DNA from: a virus
Taxonomy: Duplodnaviria; Heunggongvirae; Uroviricota; Caudoviricetes
Strand: one strand, 5' to 3'
IMG/VR virus record: IMGVR_UViG_2690316176_000005
DNA: 16,659 nucleotides
The notes under the pieces were generated by a model. The model was given only the letters and a program-made list of their open reading frames with translations, was not told where the DNA came from and did not search any database. The position numbers and the translations under genes are program-made. Within the stretch, counting starts at the first letter, position 1. The number at the start of each line of letters is the position of its first letter. Below are positions 3,518 through 14,189 of this stretch, in pieces.

Positions 3518-5496
3518 TTTGCTAATAACACTTTTCTGGCTTCATCGACTTTATTTGGAGCATCGAACCAATATTCGGCGAGCAAAGGGCAGATCTCTGT
3601 ATCAACGACTTGTTCATACCAAGCCTGGGCATCGTTGATTTTTTGGCCGATAGCTGGGGTGACATAGCTGTGACCGATACAAAACTGTGGTCCTAAGGTA
3701 ACATCTTTTGCCAGCATATCGTTTAATACCGTCAGTCGAGATTTGATGAATGCTAACATGTCAAAATCAATTGCGTAATTATAATTTACCCAGTTTCTCC
3801 ACGCGTCATTAAAAGCTGGCTTTAGATCGATAAACGCGAAACGACGGCGCAGCGCTAGGTCAAGTAGTGCGAGTGAGCGGTCTGCAATATTCATCGTACC
3901 GATGATATATAGATTCTCAGGAATGTATATTTTTTCATCAGCATTTTTAGGATAGGAAAGAGATAATGCCTCAGTCGGCGTGCGTTTATCTGCTTCCATC
4001 AACGTGAGTGTTTCACCGAAGATTTGCGCCGGATTGCCACGATTAATCTCTTCAATTATCACCACATATTTCGAGGTAGGATTATTGACTGCAGTTTTGA
4101 TTGCATTTACAAAAGGTCCATCAATTAGCGTCAATTGCCCTTCTTTACCTGGACGCCAGCCTCGAATAAAGTCTTCGTAAGAGAGGTTCGGGTGAAATTG
4201 CACCGCGCTAATACGCTCAGGTGCTTTTTCTCCCATCAAGCAGTACGCCAGACGTCGCGCTAACCAAGTTTTTCCAGTTCCGGGTGGTCCTTGTAATATC
4301 AGGTTTTTCTTGTCGATCAGGCGCTGAAGTGTGAGTTGGATCTTAGCCTCTTCCAAGAAACAGCCATCCTGCACCAGATGACTGATGTCATAAGGAACGT
4401 GGGTGAGTTTTGGCAACAGCGCACTCTCTTCGACAGTTTCCTCAGTTATCGTCTGGGATTCGTTTTTCTCAAAATTCAGGTATTCATAATTTCCGGACTC
4501 GAGGGACTTTAACTCATCATCATTGCATAGTTTCTGTAGATAAAAGTAGATTGAGCTTGTAACAGTTTTGCTCTCAGGATGCTCTACCTTGAATACGTCC
4601 AAGTAGTTTTCTTCCAACTCCGAAGCAGTGAAATAAGGGCCATTTTTTTTCAGGCATAACGCCTTAATTTTATTCAGTAAAGAGGCTTTCCACGTTCTAT
4701 TTGCCACCTCATCTTTAGACTGGCTAAGATCTGTATTCCACGCTGATAAGGAAAGTTCTGGGAAAGAATGAACCGGATAGTTTGGTTGGGTAAAGACCTC
4801 GTTCAGCGCCCGCATAAGACTCAGGTAACTTTGTCCACTACAGCGACCTTTTGCCCCGTTTTTAATGATCTTAATGTTTAACACTGTCTGAATGTAATAC
4901 TGCGACTGGCTATCTAAAGTGGGGTAGAACCAAGGACGGGTCCAGTACAACCCCATGGTGAGATTCCAACCGACATTCATTACTGTAGAAGCGATGTCAT
5001 ATGCGGCAGTGAAGTCTGCAGAGTTAGTATTCTGGTTATCCGCAAAGATCATTGCCTGTGAGAACATTTCCCACAAGCATTCAATGTCATTAGGGTCGCG
5101 TGACTTTTCATAACCAAAGAACCAAGATTTTTGGTTATTCAACAGAGGGATTCCGGCAAAGGAGTCAGGAATCGGTTCGTTCACGCCCAACAAATTCGCT
5201 AGCTTGGCAGCAATAATTTTGCGATTGCTGTCGGTCAAGTTACGATTGAACAAGCCCATAGTAGTAAACGGACAAATGTCTTTTAAGGGAAAGATCTCTC
5301 CCATAATAGATTTGTCCTGCAGATGGGACATTCCTTCCACACCCGAGGCAATTAGATGAATACCTTTGACTAATTCATCTCTACGATTTCGCCAAGTCAG
5401 TAACGCGTTGGCAAAAGCCTCATAAAAACTAGCCCAAGCAAACTTGCCATCATGTTCTGCTGTATCCACGGGAACTCCATTATACTTGTTGAGCAA
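3514..5496 (-). CDS. mcrB: McrB-family AAA+ GTPase with a long (~365 aa) non-canonical N-terminal domain, 660 aa
   Basis: Walker A LILQGPPGTGKTW. The VVIIEEINRGNPAQIFGE and IIGTMNIADRSLALLDLALRRRFAFIDL motifs are almost the same as McrB MIIDEINRANLSKVFGE and MNTADRSLAVVDYALRRRFSF, including the NxxD GTP-specificity motif. The N-terminal region has no similarity I recognise to the McrB 5mC-binding domain. The called start is TTG at 5494-5496; an in-frame GTG at 5467-5469 with a GGAG 5 nt upstream is an alternative. Confidence 0.85.
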   Translation of the reverse strand: MLNKYNGVPVDTAEHDGKFAWASFYEAFANALLTWRNRRDELVKGIHLIASGVEGMSHLQDKSIMGEIFPLKDICPFTTMGLFNRNLTDSNRKIIAAKLANLLGVNEPIPDSFAGIPLLNNQKSWFFGYEKSRDPNDIECLWEMFSQAMIFADNQNTNSADFTAAYDIASTVMNVGWNLTMGLYWTRPWFYPTLDSQSQYYIQTVLNIKIIKNGAKGRCSGQSYLSLMRALNEVFTQPNYPVHSFPELSLSAWNTDLSQSKDEVANRTWKASLLNKIKALCLKKNGPYFTASELEENYLDVFKVEHPESKTVTSSIYFYLQKLCNDDELKSLESGNYEYLNFEKNESQTITEETVEESALLPKLTHVPYDISHLVQDGCFLEEAKIQLTLQRLIDKKNLILQGPPGTGKTWLARRLAYCLMGEKAPERISAVQFHPNLSYEDFIRGWRPGKEGQLTLIDGPFVNAIKTAVNNPTSKYVVIIEEINRGNPAQIFGETLTLMEADKRTPTEALSLSYPKNADEKIYIPENLYIIGTMNIADRSLALLDLALRRRFAFIDLKPAFNDAWRNWVNYNYAIDFDMLAFIKSRLTVLNDMLAKDVTLGPQFCIGHSYVTPAIGQKINDAQAWYEQVVDTEICPLLAEYWFDAPNKVDEARKVLLAK

Positions 5497-5829: not shown

Positions 5830-6414
5830 TTATTCCATAACAGGGATTGCAGGCCACTCAATATCAGGTGCAGTTGATGTATCAACACGATTCAGCAACA
5901 CCCGATACTTCTTCCAGGCTTCAAGCAACGAGGTTTCTTCCTCCGTTGCGATTTCCAGATCTGCAGCATCCTGAAGCGGGGCAATATGCTCACTGGCTAC
6001 CTGCATCAGGCTGTTTTTTGTTTCTTCCGCCTCCCGGATCCGGAACAGTTTTTCTGCTTCCGTATCCTTCACCCAGGCTGTGCCGTTCCACTTCTGAAAC
6101 TCCCCTTCCGGGGATAACCAGGTGATATTTTCCGGTAGAGGTCCGAGTTCAGAAATAAATAACGAGTCGCCGGAAGCCACGTCATAGACGGTTTTTCCCC
6201 GATGATCTTCAACGAGATGCCACGATGCCTCATCACTGTTGAAAACAGCCACGAAGCCTACCGGAATATCTGGCGGTGCAATATAGGTACTGTTTGCTGG
6301 CAGACCTGTATGAGGCGGAATATATGCGTCACCTTCACCAATAAATTCATTAGTTCCGGCCAGCAGATTATAAATTTTTATGGTCCGTGGTTGTTCACTC
6401 ATTCTGAATGCCAT
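5830..6414 (-). CDS. tfa: Tail fibre assembly protein (lambda Tfa / TfaE family), 194 aa
   Basis: [51 protein letters not shown]... is the conserved Tfa N-terminus of E. coli lambdoid prophages. Its ATG overlaps the stf stop (TAATG). Confidence 0.85.
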
Positions 6415-9263
6415 TATGCAAGCCTCACAATGTAGTTAAATGCGATGTTTTTGACGGTGTTTTCCGCGTTACCAGCAGCGTTAACGGTGATGGTGTGTCC
6501 ATGTGAGCCAATCGCAACGGAGTGCGTATGAGCACCAATACCGACAGTATGTGCATGTGCGCCTGCGCTTGCAGCAGTGCCGGACAGCGAGTGGGTATGA
6601 GCACCATCTGATGATGTCTTCCCTGCATTACGAGTCTGGCCACTACCGCTTGTTGTGCTCATAATCCCCGCGCTTAGATTTGAAATCGCGGTATAACCAT
6701 TAGGGAAAATGCTCGTGTTCGTGCCACCAAATGCACCGGAACTCTTGTGTTGGTGCGCACCGGCACTATTTGCGGTCCCGCTAATACTATGGGTATGCGC
6801 CCCGGTGTTATTCGTGGATTTGGTTCCGTAATCAAACGACGATGTGGTTTTCGTCCCCAAATCCGTACTGGATGCGCTGGCGCTGTGGGTGTGCGATTTA
6901 ATGCCGTCCTGTTCCTGAGACAATACGGCCCGACCACTGGCAGGTTTGCCCTTAATCGTCCAGCCACGCATATCAGGGATCACGCCTGACGGATAAGCGG
7001 CTGCAAGTTTCGGGTAAGCAGATTTGTCAAAAGTCTGCCCCTGCATCAGGGCATAACCAGACGGAACGGTATCTGATGGCCACGGGATTGGTGCGCCGAC
7101 TGGGTAGCTTTCTGGTGGAAGATTTTTCGAGGTATAAACTTCTGCCCAGCCTTCCTCAAAACCATAACCGTCTCTTGAAGAACGGTAGAACAGACCACCA
7201 TTTCTGTAATGCGCCTTCATCTGCAGGGTCCGGCAACTTCCGACTCCGGTATAGAAGTTAACCAGAATATAGCTGTCGCCAGAGCGGGTGACATTGTAAG
7301 CGCCTGATTCGGCATTCCAGGGAACGCCACCATCCGCATCGGCATATGTATCCGTTGCCCTTCTGGCAAAAGCAGCCACATGCGCGGCGGTTAAAGTAAT
7401 ATCTTTGGAACCATCAAATGGAACACCGGATATTTTTCTTGCAGTCTGGAGTTTTGTAGCAGTTGCAGCATTACCAGTGGTGTTCTGATTACCCGTAGTG
7501 TTTACACCTGGAAGGTTAATATTTGCAGAACCGTCGAAAACAACTCCACCGATAGATCTTGCCGTCTGCAATTTCGTGGCTGTACTTGCATTACCATTCA
7601 ATGAACCAGTTAATCCACCTGTAACAGACAACGGACCTGAAACTGTTCCTCCGGTTGTTGGCAGTGCTCCAATATCTGATGGTGTAGGTTTCTGATGTGA
7701 GCTATACATCGTATAAACAACACCATAGGTAACGCTGGAAGGCTTACTCGCTGAATATGTTGGCGAGGTATAAACAGAAACTGACGCATTTGCAGTACAA
7801 TCCCAATGGATATTTACACTCGTCGCATAATTGCCAATCTCAACGTAAATATCATATGTATCGCCGGATGTGTTGATCCAGGCGAAATTCGTTAATCCGA
7901 CGGCTGTACGCTTCCACAAAGCCCCGGTAATTCCTTTGGGGTTTCCATTGCCTGCTCGTAGAACCAGTTCTGAAATGCCTGCCTGATGTGGGGAACCGAC
8001 GTTGTAACCAGCGCCACCAATCAATGCGATGTAAACGATGGAACTCGCTTGTGGCATGGTAACCGTAGCCAGTTTGAACCACCCAGCCCCGCCAGAGAAA
8101 GACATCGTTACTGAATTTAAAGTACCAATATCTTTCGGCGTTAATGTTATATCCGCAGTCAGTGCTTTTCCGTTAACTTTTCGGTTAGATGGCACCCTGC
8201 TATTCGCATTGTCATTGGCTGCTTTAACTGCTTTTGGCGTTGCGGCCAGCGATTCACTGGTGCTATCAACAGCACTGCTAAGTTTCACAACACCTTTAGT
8301 TGTAAGGCTTGCGTCTTCCATCGCAACTGCACCGGCAATCTCTTCAGCACGATCAGCAGCAGCTTCCGCACGGGTCGCAGCGGATTCAGCAGTAGTTTTG
8401 CTCTGAGATGCCGCCGTCGCACTGCCAGCTGCCTCTGTCGCCTTCGTGGATGCTGTCGTGGCGCTGCCTTTCGCTGCTGATGCCTGTCTGCTCGCCTCAT
8501 CTTTTGAAGCAGACGCAGATGATGCCGATGACGCCGCCGAACTGGCGGACGATGCAGCTGCCATTTTTGAGGATTCTGCACTGGTTTCCGAGGCTTTCGC
8601 GTTCGTTTCGGATGTCTTCGCTGCGGATGCAGACCTCGCTGCTGCGCTGGCCTGTTCAGCGGCTTCGCCAGCCTTCGTTGTGGCTGTTGAAGCAGACGAT
8701 GCGGCGCTTTCTGCCGATTTTCCGGCGGCGGTGGCACTGGCTGAGGCCTGCCCGGCACTTGTTGACGCGGCACTGGCAGACGACGCAGCCGCTGTTTTTG
8801 AGCCTGCCGCAGCCGAGGCGCTCTGTCCCGCTGCCGTTTCAGAAGACCTGGCGTTTGTCTCAGACGTCTTTGCCGCCTTCGCGGAATTGCCTGCCGCCGT
8901 TGCCGAGGAAGCGGCACTACTGGCGCTTGATGATGCGTTCGTTTCTGATGATTTCGCTGCCTCTTTTGAGGCCGCCGCATCCCGGGCTGAGGTGGCTGCT
9001 TCTGACGCCTTCGTGGTCGCGGCGGATGCAGAAGTGGCTGCTGATTGTTGTGACGCTGCCGCATTCGTTTCTGACGTTTTCGCCGCACCGGCACTGGTAG
9101 CTGCCGCGCTTTTTGAGGACTCTGCAGCAGCACTTTTTGCTGCTTCACGGGCCTTTGTCGATGCCGTTCCTGCGCTGGAAGACGCTGACTGAGCCGACGA
9201 CGCGGCCTGTCCGGCTGACGTGCTGGCGGCACGTGCTGAGCCTGCAGCATCGGTTATTACCAC
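6414..9263 (-). CDS. stf: Side tail fibre protein (lambda Stf family), 5'-truncated, 949 codons in frame
   Basis: Ala/Ser/Thr-rich repeats (AAKTSETNA...), the conserved [20 protein letters not shown] segment, and a C-terminus ([46 protein letters not shown]...[49 protein letters not shown]) that matches lambda Stf. The roughly 130 N-terminal residues of lambda Stf are absent; the ORF-track start is a GTG immediately after an in-frame stop. Confidence 0.85.
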
Positions 9264-10113
9264 TTCCCGGATCGCTATACGCTATTCCGTTAAAGATAAT
9301 GGGCGGAATAATGATTTGACGGTCAAAGTTATGATCATCGCTGATGGTGACTGTAACCGTCCCGTTTGGTGTTTCCGTATTACCCCACGTACCAGCCTGT
9401 TTCGGGAATGATTTGGATACAGCTTTAACGAAGTCACCTCTGACCTGAGTCGCCTCCAGCATGCCCTTAATCGTACAGTTTTCATTTACCGTGACATTGT
9501 TGAGCGTCCCGGCGTTCGCATTCACACTGCCACTGATATCCGCATTTTTAGCGGTCAGCTTTCCGTCCGGTGTCAGGGAAAATGCCGGTGGATTTCCACC
9601 GCTGGTAATGGTGGGGGCCGTCAGGCGTTTCAGGAACACGTCGTTCATGAATATCTGATCGCCCTGACCAACAAACATCGGTTTTGTGTTGCCATTCGCA
9701 GGATTAACCATCGCAATCCTGTCCGCCGCCAGCAGCACCTGACTCTGCATGCCGTCAGGGGTGTTCTCAATATCCACGATGGCCTCTTTTTCCGGTACAT
9801 GCTGCACGGCGGTGATGGCATACGTGCCGTCATCGTTCTCACGGATACTCACGCAGCGGAACAGGCGCTGGCGCAACGTCGGCAGCTTCAGCCCCCATAC
9901 GCTGTATTCAGCAACGCCGTCAGGAACACGGCTCACTTTCACCTTCACGCCGTCGGTGACGGACTGAACCTCCACGCTGACCGGACTCCCCTGCCCGTCA
10001 ACCAGGCTTATCAGCGTGGTGCCGGAAGATGGCAGCGTGATTTCACGGTCGAGCGTCAGCGTCCGGGTCTGGCTGTTTACCGCCAGCACGCGCCCGCCGG
10101 TGCGGATACCCAA
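9145..10113 (-). pseudogene. J: Remnant of tail-tip / host-specificity protein J: a middle segment joined to a C-terminal segment, with internal deletion
   Basis: [99 protein letters not shown] and ...[46 protein letters not shown]... match lambda J from memory. The several hundred residues that separate these blocks in lambda are missing. The N-terminus is absent, the called start is TTG, and the reading frame runs into stf. Confidence 0.75.
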
Positions 10114-10331
10114 GCTGGAGTGGCGAACGTTTTACCCTTGCTGATGAGGTATTCACTGATTTCGCTGTACCACATGTGGCTGAGTGCATTCTGGGAAAGA
10201 CTGCGTCTCTCGCGCCACGGTTTAAGCACCATGCGAAAGCATTTGCCGTCCTCCAGATAAGGCTGGATCTGCCGACCGATAGCGGTGAAGTTACCGCGAT
10301 GCAATTTGATACCATCTTGTGGGAGGTTCAC
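10077..10331 (-). pseudogene. 5' fragment (~76 codons) of a NinB-family (lambda nin-region) gene, truncated at the junction with the J remnant
   Basis: GTG start with a strong SD (GGAGGTGAAGC-GTG). The motif WRERRSLSQNALSHMWYSEIS resembles lambda NinB ERNRSLDQNRKLWACLGDVS. The ORF ends inside J-homologous DNA. Confidence 0.5.
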
Positions 10332-10525
10332 GCTTCACCTCCGCAGAGATCAAACGCTGGATGCAAAATATCGCAGGTGCATTTCTGCATCTGTGAATGG
10401 AGAAGAGAGGTTGGATTGTATGTGCGCATAAACGTCCCCGTTTAGCGCAGAAGTCACCGGAGTTGTTCAGGCCCCAATGGCATGATTATGGCTGGTTGAT
10501 TATTGGAAATCAAATGTGCTGAAAA

Positions 10526-11035
10526 TTAGTCTGCCAAGTCTTCCTCAGTCGCAACTGGGTAATTCCAAATATCAAAAAAAGCTATAGCCTCCTGCCATTT
10601 GCTCCATAAGTTATCAAGTACTTGTGTAGGTTCCGTACTTTTAAAAACAGAATCAGCCGCATCACCGTTATGAACTTCCTCGTACAGTTCCATTATTAGC
10701 AGATTAACAAAGTACTGTTTCAACATTAATGCCTGATTACCTTCTTTCTGCTGGCTATCCTGCTTGATGATCTCCATCGCCCGTACTAGGCACCTGATGA
10801 TATCCGCTGCATCATTAACGCTCCATTCAGATCCGCGCTTATCTTTAGCTGATGAATTGGCTCTCTCAGCGCAAGCCTTTAAAGACTCATAAAGGTAAAC
10901 TCTATTTTGTAGCTGCAGCGCTTTTTTTGACGTGTACCAACTTGCAAGCGCCGACCCCGCTGCGGCTAATGTGCCAAACGCAGAAATACCTGCTGCTATT
11001 GCACTTAAGTCGGCACTGTCAAAGTTCCACATCAT
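10526..11035 (-). CDS. Hypothetical moron protein, 169 aa, with one predicted N-terminal transmembrane helix
   Basis: Intact ATG ORF in an AT-rich segment. The N-terminal hydrophobic stretch DLSAIAAGISAFGTLAAAGSALASWY is followed by a charged soluble region. A terminator from the upstream unit lies at 11212-11250, so this gene probably has its own promoter. Confidence 0.55.
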   Translation of the reverse strand: MMWNFDSADLSAIAAGISAFGTLAAAGSALASWYTSKKALQLQNRVYLYESLKACAERANSSAKDKRGSEWSVNDAADIIRCLVRAMEIIKQDSQQKEGNQALMLKQYFVNLLIMELYEEVHNGDAADSVFKSTEPTQVLDNLWSKWQEAIAFFDIWNYPVATEEDLAD

Positions 11036-11211
11036 CGTTACACCTTATATAAATACCCCTCAGTAATATCCAATAAGGTATGTGCACAATCAATATAATT
11101 TTATCCGTATCGGCACATAGCGATTTGAACGCTACTGGTAATGGTATATTTTAGATTATATCGTCCAGTTTACAGCACCCGTATTTTATGAAATGGACTC
11201 GCATATTACCC

Positions 11212-11250
11212 AAAAAATGCCAGCACTTCCGTCATCGTAGAATGCTGGCA
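11212..11250 (-). terminator. Rho-independent terminator (perfect 8-bp stem tgccagca/tgctggca, 17-nt loop, then T6 on the minus strand)
   Basis: Minus-strand sequence: tgccagca ttctacgatgacggaag tgctggca tttttt. Confidence 0.55.
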
Positions 11251-11293
11251 GTATTTCTAACTAGTGACTTTATTGGAACAGATTCTGACGGAA

Positions 11294-11593
11294 TTATGGT
11301 AACACTCGACTCCACTTATCATCCAGCCACGGCTGGAATTTTACATGTGCCGTTTCTCTGGCGAGGATTGCTCGCGCTCTGTTGAGTATCTGGGGATATT
11401 CTTGCTCGATAGAAGTAAAGCGGCCGGCTTCGCGGTGCTCCGCAACCTGAAGTAGTGGAGTAACGTTCTGGCAGGCAGTTAACATCACATCACCTGCTCG
11501 CCATAACCAAGCACGTGCACAAAGTTTGTTATCAGTGAATTGTTTTGTGATTGGGTATTGTTGAACTGCTAGAACGAGAACGCCAGCATCCAT
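11294..11593 (-). CDS. Hypothetical protein, 99 aa (low confidence)
   Basis: ATG with an AGGGA 6-10 nt upstream; followed downstream by the 11212-11250 terminator. No family recognised. Confidence 0.3.
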   Translation of the reverse strand: MDAGVLVLAVQQYPITKQFTDNKLCARAWLWRAGDVMLTACQNVTPLLQVAEHREAGRFTSIEQEYPQILNRARAILARETAHVKFQPWLDDKWSRVLP

Positions 11594-11704
11594 TGGCAGT
11601 CCCTATAGTAAAACCATAGCTCAGGACGCTTCGTTCAGGATAGATAATTTTATTGTACTTACCTAACTTTCTTACTATAGCACGGTTGAAAAAGTGATTA
11701 TTAC

Positions 11705-13231
11705 TCAAAAATAAACCTCACCATCAACCATATATTTGAGAGTACTTATCGCCTGCTGGGCGGATATTGTTTTCATTAAAGGATAGTGTTTAAAAACAAT
11801 GCCATTCATAAAATAGATATCACAGGTTTTATTATCTGTATTGATTATGATTTTTTCGAATGTTTTATAGGCAAGTGTACGACATAGCTCTCGCCCATTT
11901 TTACTGGTTAAGTCAATAGCATGAAAATCACCAAGTGAACTCACCGCTTTACTCTTCAAAGTTTTTAATGATACAGAAGCCCTTCGTAATTCCTTATCTA
12001 ATACTCTGATTTTTTCTGCTATAGCGGTAACTTCAGGCGCAACAGATAATGCAGCAATTAAATTATTAATTTTCATCTGGAGCTCAATAATTTTCAACTC
12101 TAAAGTTTCATTAGCATCTTTCTTGTTTTCAACTGGTTGGATTTTACTACAATTAAAAAGCAACTCATTAATGATATTATAATCAACCAAATCTCTCTTT
12201 ATTGATGGCCTGTCACATCGATGCAGTCTTCTCATCGGACAAACATAATAGCCATGCAAACTTCCAGATACCGCATGAACAATCATGGTATTACCACAAG
12301 CCTCGCACTTCATAACTGTTCGAAGTAGATTTATCAACATAGGATTTTTGCTACTATTGCTAATACCAAAAGGTGCCAACCGAATTTCCTGCACAGCGTA
12401 AAACAAATCATCTGATATGACTCTGGGATAATAGCCAGCGATTTCACTTATTCCTTTACCTCTTGCACGATATGAAGGTACGCATATACCTATCAGAGCT
12501 TTATTCGCTAATAATTTTTCAATTACAGAAGGTCCCCATGCACTTTCTTTTCCTGAGAAATTCTTTACAGCATGATCATTTAAATACTTGGCTATTGCAT
12601 TCAATGAGCGCCTTTCCATCCTGAGTTTAAAAATTAGCTCAATAGTTTTCACCCTGTCGGGGTCTGGAACAAAAGCCGTTCTTTTGTCATCCAATGAGAG
12701 CCATCTCGGACAAGACGCCGTCATAATCGTGCCTGACTCCAGTGCATCCTGCCGTTTTTTCTTCCATGATAATTTAACCCGACTTGACTTTATCTCGCTT
12801 TCTTCATTTGCCCTTTGTGCTATAAGTATGGCTTTTATTAATGAATATGGCTCATTCAATGAGTCAATATTATAGACTGTATTATCGCAAAGAGTTATAA
12901 CATCAATACCGTGATTCAAAATCAATTTCAGACGCTCAATCGCCTCACCGACTTTTTCTCTTGAAAGTCTGTCCAGACTTTCAACTAACAATGTAGTCCC
13001 TGGCAATATATAACCATGTTCTATAGCATCTAAAAATTCCGAAAAAGCTCCTGATTGTGCATGCTTTCCATTGAATGCGCTTAACCCCAAATCTTCATAC
13101 GTTACGGTATCAAGGTAATAATCACTATTTACCTTTAGCCATTCAGTAATAAGCCTTCTCTGGCGGTTTAATGAATCACCAGACATCTGACTTGGTGATG
13201 AAAATCGCATATATGCTATGGCTTTTTTCAT
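11705..13231 (-). CDS. ybcK: Large serine recombinase (resolvase/invertase-type catalytic domain, recombinase domain and Cys-rich zinc ribbon), 508 aa; YbcK-like as in prophage DLP12
   Basis: N-terminal AIAYMRFSSPSQ...GDSLNRQ carries the serine-recombinase catalytic Ser/Arg motifs. A C-x2-C...C-x-C cluster (MKCEACGNT...YYVCPMRRLHRC) is present. Its size and position next to emrE-ren-P match the DLP12 arrangement. Confidence 0.8.
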   Translation of the reverse strand: MKKAIAYMRFSSPSQMSGDSLNRQRRLITEWLKVNSDYYLDTVTYEDLGLSAFNGKHAQSGAFSEFLDAIEHGYILPGTTLLVESLDRLSREKVGEAIERLKLILNHGIDVITLCDNTVYNIDSLNEPYSLIKAILIAQRANEESEIKSSRVKLSWKKKRQDALESGTIMTASCPRWLSLDDKRTAFVPDPDRVKTIELIFKLRMERRSLNAIAKYLNDHAVKNFSGKESAWGPSVIEKLLANKALIGICVPSYRARGKGISEIAGYYPRVISDDLFYAVQEIRLAPFGISNSSKNPMLINLLRTVMKCEACGNTMIVHAVSGSLHGYYVCPMRRLHRCDRPSIKRDLVDYNIINELLFNCSKIQPVENKKDANETLELKIIELQMKINNLIAALSVAPEVTAIAEKIRVLDKELRRASVSLKTLKSKAVSSLGDFHAIDLTSKNGRELCRTLAYKTFEKIIINTDNKTCDIYFMNGIVFKHYPLMKTISAQQAISTLKYMVDGEVYF

Positions 13232-13486
13232 GGTGACACCTGCTAAAGTATGCTTTTATAAACCTTAGTGGTGAGATATGATTTTTGTTTAATTTTTATT
13301 TAAAAAGACAATTAAGGTCACATTATCTTGAATATACAACAATAATCGTATTGCAATTTTCTTACACCATAATCTTGAAAGCACAAAAGAATGAATAAAA
13401 ACTAAAGACATTAACAAAAAGCATAAAACGAGGCCCATATAAATATACGAGCCTCCATATTTTAGTCGTTTAAAAACAAATTATTT

Positions 13487-13819
13487 TTAATGTGGTGTGC
13501 TTCGTGACAATAAATTAATAACCAACACACCGGCACAAATCAACATCATGCCTATAATGGCTGGCAGGTCCAACCGTTGGCCGAAAAATCCCCATGATAG
13601 TAAGCTAATCAGGACAATACCGACTCCTGACCAGATAGCATAAGCAATCCCTGTAGGAATATAAGCCAGCGTCTGAGCTAATAACCAGAATGATGCACAA
13701 TAACAAATAATTGTACCAACAGATGGCCATAACCGTGTAAAACCTTCTGAAAACTTCATTAAGGTTGTACCAATGACCTCTGCAAGTATTGCACCACCAA
13801 GATAAATATAAGGATTCAT
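13487..13819 (-). CDS. emrE: Small multidrug resistance (SMR) efflux transporter EmrE, 110 aa
   Basis: MNPYIYLGGAILAEVIGTTLMKFSEGFTRLWPSVGTIICYCASFWLLAQTLAYIPTGIAYAIWSGVGIVLISLLSWGFFGQRLDLPAIIGMMLICAGVLVINLLSRSTPH matches EmrE. The ORF-track ORF extends 18 codons upstream, but the true start is the internal ATG at 13817-13819. Confidence 0.9.
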   Translation of the reverse strand: MNPYIYLGGAILAEVIGTTLMKFSEGFTRLWPSVGTIICYCASFWLLAQTLAYIPTGIAYAIWSGVGIVLISLLSWGFFGQRLDLPAIIGMMLICAGVLVINLLSRSTPH

Positions 13820-13886
13820 AGCATATTCTTTCCTGTTCAAACTGGAGAGAATTGTACTACAGTTTGAACTCAACTCACCTGTTTCA

Positions 13887-14189
13887 TCATTGTGTACCCA
13901 TTGATGTTCTTTTATATACCCTCAATACCCGTTTCATCGCGGCACTCTGGCGACACTCCTTAAAAATCAAATTCGTGCTCACCTTTCCTTCCCATTCTTC
14001 TCTGGTAGCGAACCGATAATACACCGTTCGCCAGACCTTACCATCAACGACCAGGATTCCTGCCCGCGCCATTTTAGCCGCAGCCTGATTTATGCTGGTT
14101 ACCGTTGCGCCTGTTACCGCGGCAACGTCCTGCGCACAGAATTTCTTATGAGTCCCCAGGTAATGAATAATTGACTCTTTGCCCGTCAT
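13887..14189 (-). CDS. ren: Lambda Ren-like protein (Rex exclusion escape), 100 aa
   Basis: MTGKESIIHYLGTHKKFCAQDVAAVTGATVTSINQAAAKMARAGILVVDGKVWRTVYYRFATRE... matches lambda Ren from memory. Its start overlaps the P stop, as in lambda. Confidence 0.75.
   Translation of the reverse strand: MTGKESIIHYLGTHKKFCAQDVAAVTGATVTSINQAAAKMARAGILVVDGKVWRTVYYRFATREEWEGKVSTNLIFKECRQSAAMKRVLRVYKRTSMGTQ

Follow-up and report, generated by a model that had tools for sequence, protein, structure and literature searches.

The 16,659-nucleotide (nt) stretch analysed here (the window; IMG/VR record IMGVR_UViG_2690316176_000005, Caudoviricetes) carries on its minus strand, at 10526-11035, a gene for a 169-residue protein of PHROG family 1779. 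It is a genuine gene under purifying selection, and an uncharacterised accessory gene of a well-known kind of element, the phage moron. According to our analysis, it has a conserved putative promoter of its own and encodes a predicted single-pass inner-membrane protein with a helical cytoplasmic domain. An earlier note, made from the letters of the sequence alone, had proposed a candidate superinfection-exclusion or abortive-infection protein; we posit, tentatively, that protection of the lysogen against other phages is the function of the gene, and consider a role in early lytic development nearly as likely.

A conserved gene with a putative promoter of its own

The open reading frame (ORF) starts with ATG and lies where the earlier note had placed it; its assignment rests on the ORF list, RefSeq, the PHROG match and the ratio of nonsynonymous to synonymous substitution rates (dN/dS). 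In the annotation of Escherichia coli strains ML35 and 55989 it is named WP_000990013.1, 'hypothetical protein'. Direct reading of the sequence places a Shine-Dalgarno element, AAGGTG, at 11046-11041 (minus strand), 5 nt 5' of the ATG. When the gene was compared with the relatives at loci L053, L057 and L058 (69-75% protein identity; L numbers designate the loci collected for comparison), dN/dS was 0.086-0.095 by the Nei-Gojobori method, and because this ratio is about 0.09 we regard the ORF as a real gene. It is intact in 23 of 24 distinct alleles, the exception being a frameshifted pseudogene with an internal stop (L051), and in Escherichia, Enterobacter, Scandinavium, Phytobacter, Pantoea and Erwinia-phage contexts the ORF retains its full length in relatives of 100% to about 22% identity.

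The protein matches PHROG 1779 ('unknown function') over its whole length (E 1.2e-102, residues 1-169 on profile positions 1-169), as do all 27 aligned relatives. The family is small: 15 relatives were found among 5.8 billion protein clusters, and a profile search returned 35 clusters among 1.84 billion representatives. In scans of the protein and 27 relatives against Pfam, NCBIfam and PADLOC there was no genuine match. The window protein had none at E <= 1 in PADLOC-DB 2.0 (5027 models), and the relatives gave only scattered matches, each in at most two members and at E >= 0.0018, with none consistent. Literature searches on the accession, the PHROG number and the phage names returned nothing on this protein. 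That no family had been recognised in the earlier note is thus correct for Pfam, NCBIfam and PADLOC, although the protein is catalogued as PHROG 1779. This is an orphan family, and membership in it gives the family a name and explains no function.

For comparison, 60 loci, most of them near-identical, were gathered from IMG/VR, GTDB genomes, Logan/ENA/JGI contigs and GenBank. Of 5426 complete E. coli genomes, 181 have the gene together with its promoter, O104:H4 and 55989 among them, and the 1.4 kb around the gene match the chromosomes of numerous E. coli strains (such as ML35) at 100% identity. Among 50,697 phage records, two carry the gene, and most lambdoid phages are without it; the plaque-forming phages PhiR26_1 and PhiR5_1 carry it. 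Distant relatives (about 35% identity) occur in P1-like phage-plasmids, beside phd-doc, and in a 51-kb Enterobacter phage-plasmid; others come from an Erwinia phage and from prophages of Pantoea, Enterobacter, Scandinavium and Phytobacter. All genomic contexts examined were temperate phages, prophages or phage-plasmids of Enterobacterales, and none was a non-phage chromosomal locus.

Upstream of the gene on the minus strand, at 11065-11093, conservation points to a sigma-70-type promoter with a -35 element TTGATT (11093-11088), a 17-nt spacer and a -10 element GATATT (11070-11065). The TTG of the -35 element and the sequence GATATTA are invariant in seven diverged lineages, with the spacing fixed at 17 nt and differing spacer sequences, so that the general element reads TTG(A/C)nn, 17 nt, GATATT and, about 20 nt further on, the ribosome-binding site. 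In these seven lineages the protein shares 50-100% identity with that of the window, and the upstream gene is Rha, DUF551, Ead/Ea22 or P. The motif stands at most 120 nt upstream of the gene in 55 of the 60 loci and occurs nine other times in 1.39 Mb of locus sequence; since most of the loci are near-identical, the independent evidence is that of the seven lineages. The element agrees with the consensus at 8 of 12 positions (4/6 and 4/6), which is weak on paper, and was missed by a simple scanner. In L004, L011 and L012, TATAAT is found instead; a GC-rich hairpin comes next and overlaps with the ribosome-binding site. From this conservation we infer a private sigma-70 promoter, predicted to be active independently of the phage operons.

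An imperfect inverted repeat surrounds the -10 element at 11053-11081, minus strand (ATACCTT...GGGGTAT; ATACCCTG...CAGGGTAT in relatives), in several, though not all, lineages, and may act as an operator or fold into an RNA hairpin. Judged by eye, its spacing does not suit the CTG-N10-CAG of a LexA box, and as a conserved RNA hairpin it was rejected because it is weak or absent in L006, L008 and L051, while the promoter hexamers are invariant.

The earlier note had described a strong terminator upstream of the gene, and exact mapping and folding bear this out. At 11212-11250 (minus strand), at the end of the Rha/P22AR module, folding and conservation identify an intrinsic terminator with a 10-bp stem and six U residues (UGCCAGCAUU...AGUGCUGGCA followed by UUUUUU; -16.6 kcal/mol, z = -3.5 against dinucleotide shuffles). 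A simple scanner missed it because its loop is longer than 8 nt. The terminator is kept with the full-length Rha gene in PhiR26_1 and is not present where the upstream gene is DUF551; in the window it would insulate the gene from upstream read-through. The description of the gene as a terminator-delimited unit fits this copy only in part, as the upstream terminator belongs to the Rha module, whose 3' end it forms, and none stands immediately 3' of the stop codon. A terminator-like hairpin comes next at 10362-10395, in the leader of ninB, into which the gene runs directly in the E. coli clade. Other clades have terminators of their own: in L053-L058 one stands directly 3' of the gene (GGCCTC-TCCG-GAGGCC plus T5, -18.7 kcal/mol, z -4.3), and strong intrinsic terminators lie directly downstream of the gene in L064/L066 and L067. 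In the intact prophages L005, L006 and L008, no terminator precedes the gene.

Morons are recognised by a promoter and terminator of their own, deviant base composition, and their status as extra DNA relative to related phages (PMC3594210). The putative promoter TTGnnn-17-GATATT, invariant in seven diverged loci, speaks for the first of these features. As to composition, the G+C content (GC) of the gene is 43.9%, compared with 53.2% for the tail fibre gene, 54.9% for the NinB remnant, 48.7% for the Rha remnant and 45.0% for the window as a whole; the ybcK recombinase gene, at 36.5%, is below the gene and the lowest in the region. The gene is indeed AT-richer than the tail fibre gene, in line with what had been claimed for the phage structural genes, and its offset from the surrounding phage genes is modest. 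Its presence is patchy: ybcL-ybcM is the alternative in the K-12 prophage DLP12, and the 181 E. coli genomes with the gene contrast with 2957 that match the flanking ninB leader region. With a conserved private promoter, private terminators in relatives, deviant GC and presence or absence in a defined slot, the family appears to behave as a moron, which upholds that label; the window copy seems to be without a downstream terminator of its own.

Predicted anatomy of the protein

Hydropathy and a comparison of 32 family members point to a membrane anchor in codons 11-33 (10937-11005, minus strand), an uncharged segment rich in Ala, Gly and Ser. In this allele the segment is marginal, with a best 19-mer Kyte-Doolittle value of 1.59 and a crude Hessa sum of +2.7. 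All 32 members have an uncharged 19-mer (Kyte-Doolittle 1.44-2.49, median 1.81), an N-terminal stretch of 5-13 residues that is never net positive (net 0 to -2), and one to five Lys or Arg in the 12 residues after the segment. Because the N-terminal flank is acidic or at least never positive and the C-terminal flank is basic, an N-out/C-in orientation is predicted, which would make this a single-pass inner-membrane protein with its bulk in the cytoplasm and about ten residues outside. The hydrophobic N-terminal helix that the earlier note had read ahead of a charged domain is present and is marginal in the allele itself; the anchor appears convincing only at the family level. In the alignments, the conserved small residues S18, A19, A26, A29 and S32 fall on one helical face, which suggests a surface for self-association. 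In one relative of 288 residues (P0042), the segment is preceded by three more hydrophobic helices, consistent with residence in the membrane.

A predicted cytoplasmic, all-helical bundle follows in codons 38-158 (10562-10924, minus strand; AlphaFold2 models and alignments). The models show a helical bundle over residues ~40-155, with a predicted local distance difference test score (pLDDT) of 75-96 over most of it, an N-terminal helix of low confidence and a disordered linker ahead of the final eight residues; pLDDT is < 50 for residues 159-166. Conserved positions of the bundle include ERAN, W71, D75-x-A-[ND]-I, Y/F-F, P-D and W147, and among polar positions Q43, R58, N60, D75, K106, E116 and D128. 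The acidic character of the protein extends beyond its N-terminus (isoelectric point 4.6; 24 Asp and Glu against 15 Lys and Arg). It ends in a flexible acidic tail, ATEEDLAD (codons 162-169; 10529-10552, minus strand), delimited by alignments and pLDDT. The family motif of the tail is T-[DE]-[ED]-D-L-x-D, in which T163, E165, D166, L167 and D169 do not vary among close relatives; most distant relatives share the motif, and several lack it. The tail is likely to be a docking peptide.

The family alignments contain no constellation of His, Cys or Ser pointing to catalysis and no known effector motif, and the bundle of about 120 residues is probably non-enzymatic. Neither Foldseek nor a profile search of the PDB gave a significant fold or sequence match for it; the PDB sequence profile search returned only chance matches (Bcl-2-like, E about 0.6).

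Several specific identities were considered and rejected. Weak HepT matches raised the idea of a HEPN toxin; their Foldseek E values were 0.8-2.6 at TM-scores of 0.21-0.34, the R-x(4-6)-H motif is not present, and the conserved motif is E-R-A-N, with no conserved His. Relatedness to P1 Lxr, an idea taken from the hot-lxr-humD-phd neighbourhood, received an hhalign probability of 0.2%. A cleavable signal peptide or a signal-arrest-release (SAR) endolysin is at odds with the acidic N-terminus and the topology. An i-spanin (Rz) or pinholin does not fit a gene of the early region rather than the lysis cassette, nor the N-out/C-in topology with its acidic N-terminus and basic C-terminal flank.

The cassette and its prophage setting

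On the minus strand the gene order is P'-ren-emrE-ylcJ-ybcK-rha'-GENE-ylcH-ninB'. This segment, a piece of a lambdoid prophage of the DLP12 type, is set into an e14-like remnant with iraM, an icd fragment, mcrBC-like genes, tail fibre genes, a ymfQ fragment and baseplate genes; the fragment, from P' to ninB', lies between the ymfQ fragment and the tail genes. In 55989 the segment continues into a normal ninB-ninE-ybcO-rusA-quuD-lysis region. In the window, ninB is cut off after about 84 codons and abuts a pseudogene with a tail-tip domain (9145-10113). The region is a chimeric, heavily rearranged prophage graveyard.

BLASTN against K-12 MG1655 found homology at 11666-14100 and at 10107-10514 and none for 10515-11665, where K-12 DLP12 has 1.8 kb with ybcL and ybcM. 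Since homology is lost exactly there, the gene is part of a replaceable cassette in a defined cargo slot. This variable cassette (10515-11665, minus strand) comprises the Rha remnant, the terminator, the promoter and the gene in 1.15 kb. The earlier note had set the gene between the serine recombinase and the nin-region remnant. The large serine recombinase ybcK (11705-13231, minus strand; RefSeq and ORF list) and the NinB remnant (10077-10331, minus strand; ORF list, RefSeq and PHROG) are indeed the neighbours, and the Rha remnant, which had gone unmentioned, lies in between. It consists of 99 residues of the P22AR C-terminal domain (11294-11593, minus strand) and was assigned through RefSeq and PHROG anti-repressor matches; a full-length Rha gene occupies the same position in PhiR26_1, PhiR5_1 and many IMG/VR loci. 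The genes emrE-ylcJ-ybcK (11594-13873, with emrE within 13487-13873) take the place that the N-terminal half of Rha has in related phages, and the segment looks like an insertion into rha that truncated it.

The downstream boundary of the cassette is a leader module upstream of ninB (10332-10514, minus strand), delimited by folding and conservation. It contains a promoter-like TTGATT-17-CATAAT (10513-10485), three covarying hairpins, of which the third, with a U-run after it (10362-10395), is the terminator-like one, and the small ORF ylcH. The module is kept in 11 diverged loci and in K-12 DLP12. Conserved hairpin loops read CCUGAACA(A/C) at 10455-10479 and GGGGAC at 10424-10448, RNAalifold found double changes in 9 of 30 pairs, and Rfam gave no match to the module or elsewhere within 10250-11350. 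The leader could be a tR2-like terminator/leader or a prophage small RNA of about 120 nt. The 33-residue ylcH (10328-10429, minus strand) overlaps the leader hairpins, and its end overlaps the start of ninB (ATGA/GTGA); its frame is kept in the diverged L005 and L006 even where the third hairpin differs in sequence, so that ylcH may encode a genuine small protein or a leader peptide coupled to ninB. In PhiR26_1 (L002), positions 4653-4750, upstream of Rha, are a second copy of window positions 10352-10449 (98 nt, 91% identical). The cassette of Rha, terminator and gene is therefore flanked by repeats in this phage, and these may serve as a recombination joint by which cargo moves into and out of the slot.

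In the lambdoid loci the gene is always co-oriented with the early-right operon and no further variable gene separates it from ninB or from DUF1367, the positional analogue of ninB; in about 58 loci it stands among the early genes ead/Ea22, DUF551, Rha, P and ninB. The stretch from the replication genes to ninB carries, depending on the phage, Ren, EmrE, YbcL/YbcM or PD-lambda-1, and because these alternate there we regard it as a hotspot for cargo and defence genes. The earlier note had suggested looking for co-occurrence with defence genes. Co-location with PD-lambda-1 (SNIPE) is confined to one near-identical E. coli prophage lineage, and no conserved partner gene emerged; that SNIPE and Ren lie nearby reflects a common hotspot rather than a partnership kept in evolution. 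In distant relatives the gene belongs to early-left operons, where it is flanked by N or exonuclease genes on one side and int on the other. At L061-L063 and L067-L069 the gene directly follows a gene for a DNA polymerase III theta subunit (HolE/Hot-like). In the Pantoea prophages (L067), the stop codon of the theta gene and the TTG start of the gene overlap (TTGA), which implies that the pair would be translationally coupled. This pair is closed by its strong terminator and so forms a two-gene cassette.

Two features elsewhere in the window were recorded in passing. Rfam RF02111 ('IS009') matches 5873-6071 on the minus strand (214 bits, E 1e-52), inside the tail-fibre-assembly gene at 5830-6414. 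The tail fibre ORF (6414-9263, 949 residues) has in its N-terminal part (8285-9263) low-complexity repeats rich in Ala, Ser and Thr, with GC > 60% and a strong AT skew; because of this repeat region, long ORFs that are spurious show up in the other frames and on the complementary strand.

Candidate functions and their implications

We tentatively favour, at well short of an even chance, a prophage-expressed protector against other phages that acts by exclusion or abortive infection. The gene would be transcribed from its own promoter in the repressed prophage, as a lysogenic-conversion moron, and its product would sit at the cytoplasmic face of the inner membrane, where it would shield the lysogen from other phages. 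Exclusion could come about through binding of a membrane component, or of an incoming phage protein, that is needed for genome entry. In the abortive route, oligomerisation via the weak transmembrane helix would compromise the membrane once triggered. This reading draws on the purifying selection, the conserved putative promoter, the terminators upstream and in other clades, the lower GC, the patchy presence in a cargo slot of a region that in some phages also holds SNIPE, the anchor signals in all 32 members, the retention of the gene in decayed prophages of two clades and the precedent of HK97 gp15.

Among known systems, HK97 gp15 is a small inner-membrane protein that is made from the prophage and blocks genome entry (PMC3594210). 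A promoter of their own, deviant GC and a patchy presence mark gp15 and the lambdoid morons (Juhala et al. 2000; Cumby et al. 2012) as they do this gene, whose promoter is putative; their terminator or terminators have a counterpart directly downstream of the gene in other clades of the family, and the location in the inner membrane is predicted for our gene product as well. There is no sequence or fold similarity between the two. HK97 gp15 is encoded in the tail operon and comes from the host gene yebO, whereas PHROG 1779 was found only in phage contexts, in early regions, and the bulk of its product is predicted to be cytoplasmic. The architecture also recalls P22 SieA and T4 Imm, which are phage- or prophage-encoded inner-membrane proteins that stop incoming DNA (PMC10883804; PMC3594210); no homology to them appeared in the annotated searches, and only about ten periplasmic residues are predicted here. 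A membrane-anchored protector with its working parts in the cytoplasm has a parallel in PD-lambda-1, that is, SNIPE, a nuclease with an N-terminal transmembrane anchor and cytoplasmic functional domains that cuts injected phage DNA at the injection site (bioRxiv 10.1101/2025.11.03.685801). In PhiR26_1 and a dozen or more IMG/VR prophages, SNIPE lies between ren and ninB, about 1.6 kb from the gene. It is encoded on the opposite strand and has 500 residues with DUF4041 and nuclease domains, whereas our gene has no nuclease motif; as the gene mostly occurs without SNIPE, they are neighbours in a region rather than parts of a single system. The identical slot in K-12 DLP12, between the 3' end of ybcK and the ylcH/ninB leader, holds ybcL-ybcM, whose products, a PEBP-family periplasmic protein and an AraC-type regulator, are unrelated to the gene.

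A number of observations weigh against protection. There is no consistent PADLOC match, no conserved partner gene and no catalytic or effector motif, the promoter looks weak on paper, at 4/6 and 4/6, and the transmembrane segment of the window allele is marginal. With only about ten residues predicted in the periplasm, the protein would differ from classical injection blockers. Because no terminator precedes the gene in the intact prophages L005, L006 and L008, and given its co-orientation with the early genes, it would be expected to be expressed early in lytic growth as well. Finally, the early-left operons and the theta coupling of distant homologues point to a role that serves the phage.

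These last points lead to an alternative that we consider possible and nearly as likely as the protector, namely an early-lytic accessory factor in which the membrane-tethered bundle and its tail would capture or relocate a cytoplasmic protein of the host or phage (a protease, a defence protein or a component of replication or repair, for instance) and so aid phage development. Its place on the early transcript, always co-oriented and amid early genes in those ~58 loci, fits such a factor, as do the early-left position of distant members between N or exonuclease genes and int, the theta homologue adjacent in two clades with the TTGA overlap in L067, the resemblance of the acidic C-terminal peptide to a docking motif, and the missing upstream terminator in intact prophages. 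A gene that merely rides the early transcript would, however, need neither a conserved private promoter nor terminators. The gene must also be dispensable for lambdoid growth, since most lambdoid phages do without it (2 of 50,697 records with the gene), and it is intact in decayed prophages no longer capable of lytic growth. Such retention occurs in two separate clades, that of this window and that of L061-L063, and speaks weakly for some advantage to the host.

A role in lysogenic conversion that has nothing to do with phage defence is a further candidate, and morons are known to have many non-defence roles (PMC3594210). Lysogenic conversion of this kind, affecting envelope physiology (stress tolerance, transport or colonisation) as with EmrE and YbcL, would suit the moron architecture, the slot shared with ybcL-ybcM, the nearby emrE and the presence of the gene in the pathogenic lineages O104:H4 and 55989. 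We consider it unlikely, as family, profile and fold searches found no similarity to any transporter, adhesin or regulator, and as contexts confined to phages and phage-plasmids argue for a phage-centred function. More improbable still is a modulator of lysis or lysogeny timing, either through a SAR- or pinholin-type helix or through binding of FtsH/HflKC that tunes lysis or CII stability. The composition of the helix with its conserved small-residue face and the location in the early region, where lysis-lysogeny regulators act, are compatible with it; yet the gene lies outside the lysis cassette, the same prophages have complete holin-endolysin-spanin sets elsewhere, the N-out/C-in charge pattern is the opposite of that of SAR endolysins and i-spanins, and neither CIII nor known antiholins resemble it. 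That the ORF is spurious, or a non-functional relic of prophage decay, might be suspected from the heavily rearranged remnant and the frameshifted L051 allele. This is effectively refuted by the dN/dS of about 0.09, the full-length ORF kept to ~22% identity, the conserved promoter and ribosome-binding site, and the plaque-forming PhiR26_1 and PhiR5_1 that carry the gene.

For the family as a whole, we offer as a rather doubtful proposal that PHROG 1779 may be a single-gene, membrane-anchored exclusion or abortive-infection family, in which a cytoplasmic sensor bundle is joined to a weakly hydrophobic, self-associating helix, or a membrane tether with an acidic tail for capturing a replication-associated protein. 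The tether idea stems from the operon coupling to the polymerase III theta homologues.

Whatever its function, the analysis adds an anatomy (promoter, boundaries, topology and conserved residues) to one among many uncharacterised phage accessory genes. If the gene serves the phage, the theta link and the acidic docking tail would provide a handle on unexplained early accessory genes, and a tether for replication proteins would be a means, not described before, by which temperate phages manipulate these proteins at the membrane. If the product excludes phages or aborts their infection, it would be a compact single-gene system of 169 residues overlooked by current defence catalogues, found both in inducible lambdoid phages and in the prophages of lineages with clinical relevance (O104:H4, 55989). 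Exclusion would also reinforce the slot between the replication genes and ninB as a defence and cargo hotspot of lambdoid phages, comparable to the hotspots of P2 and P4.

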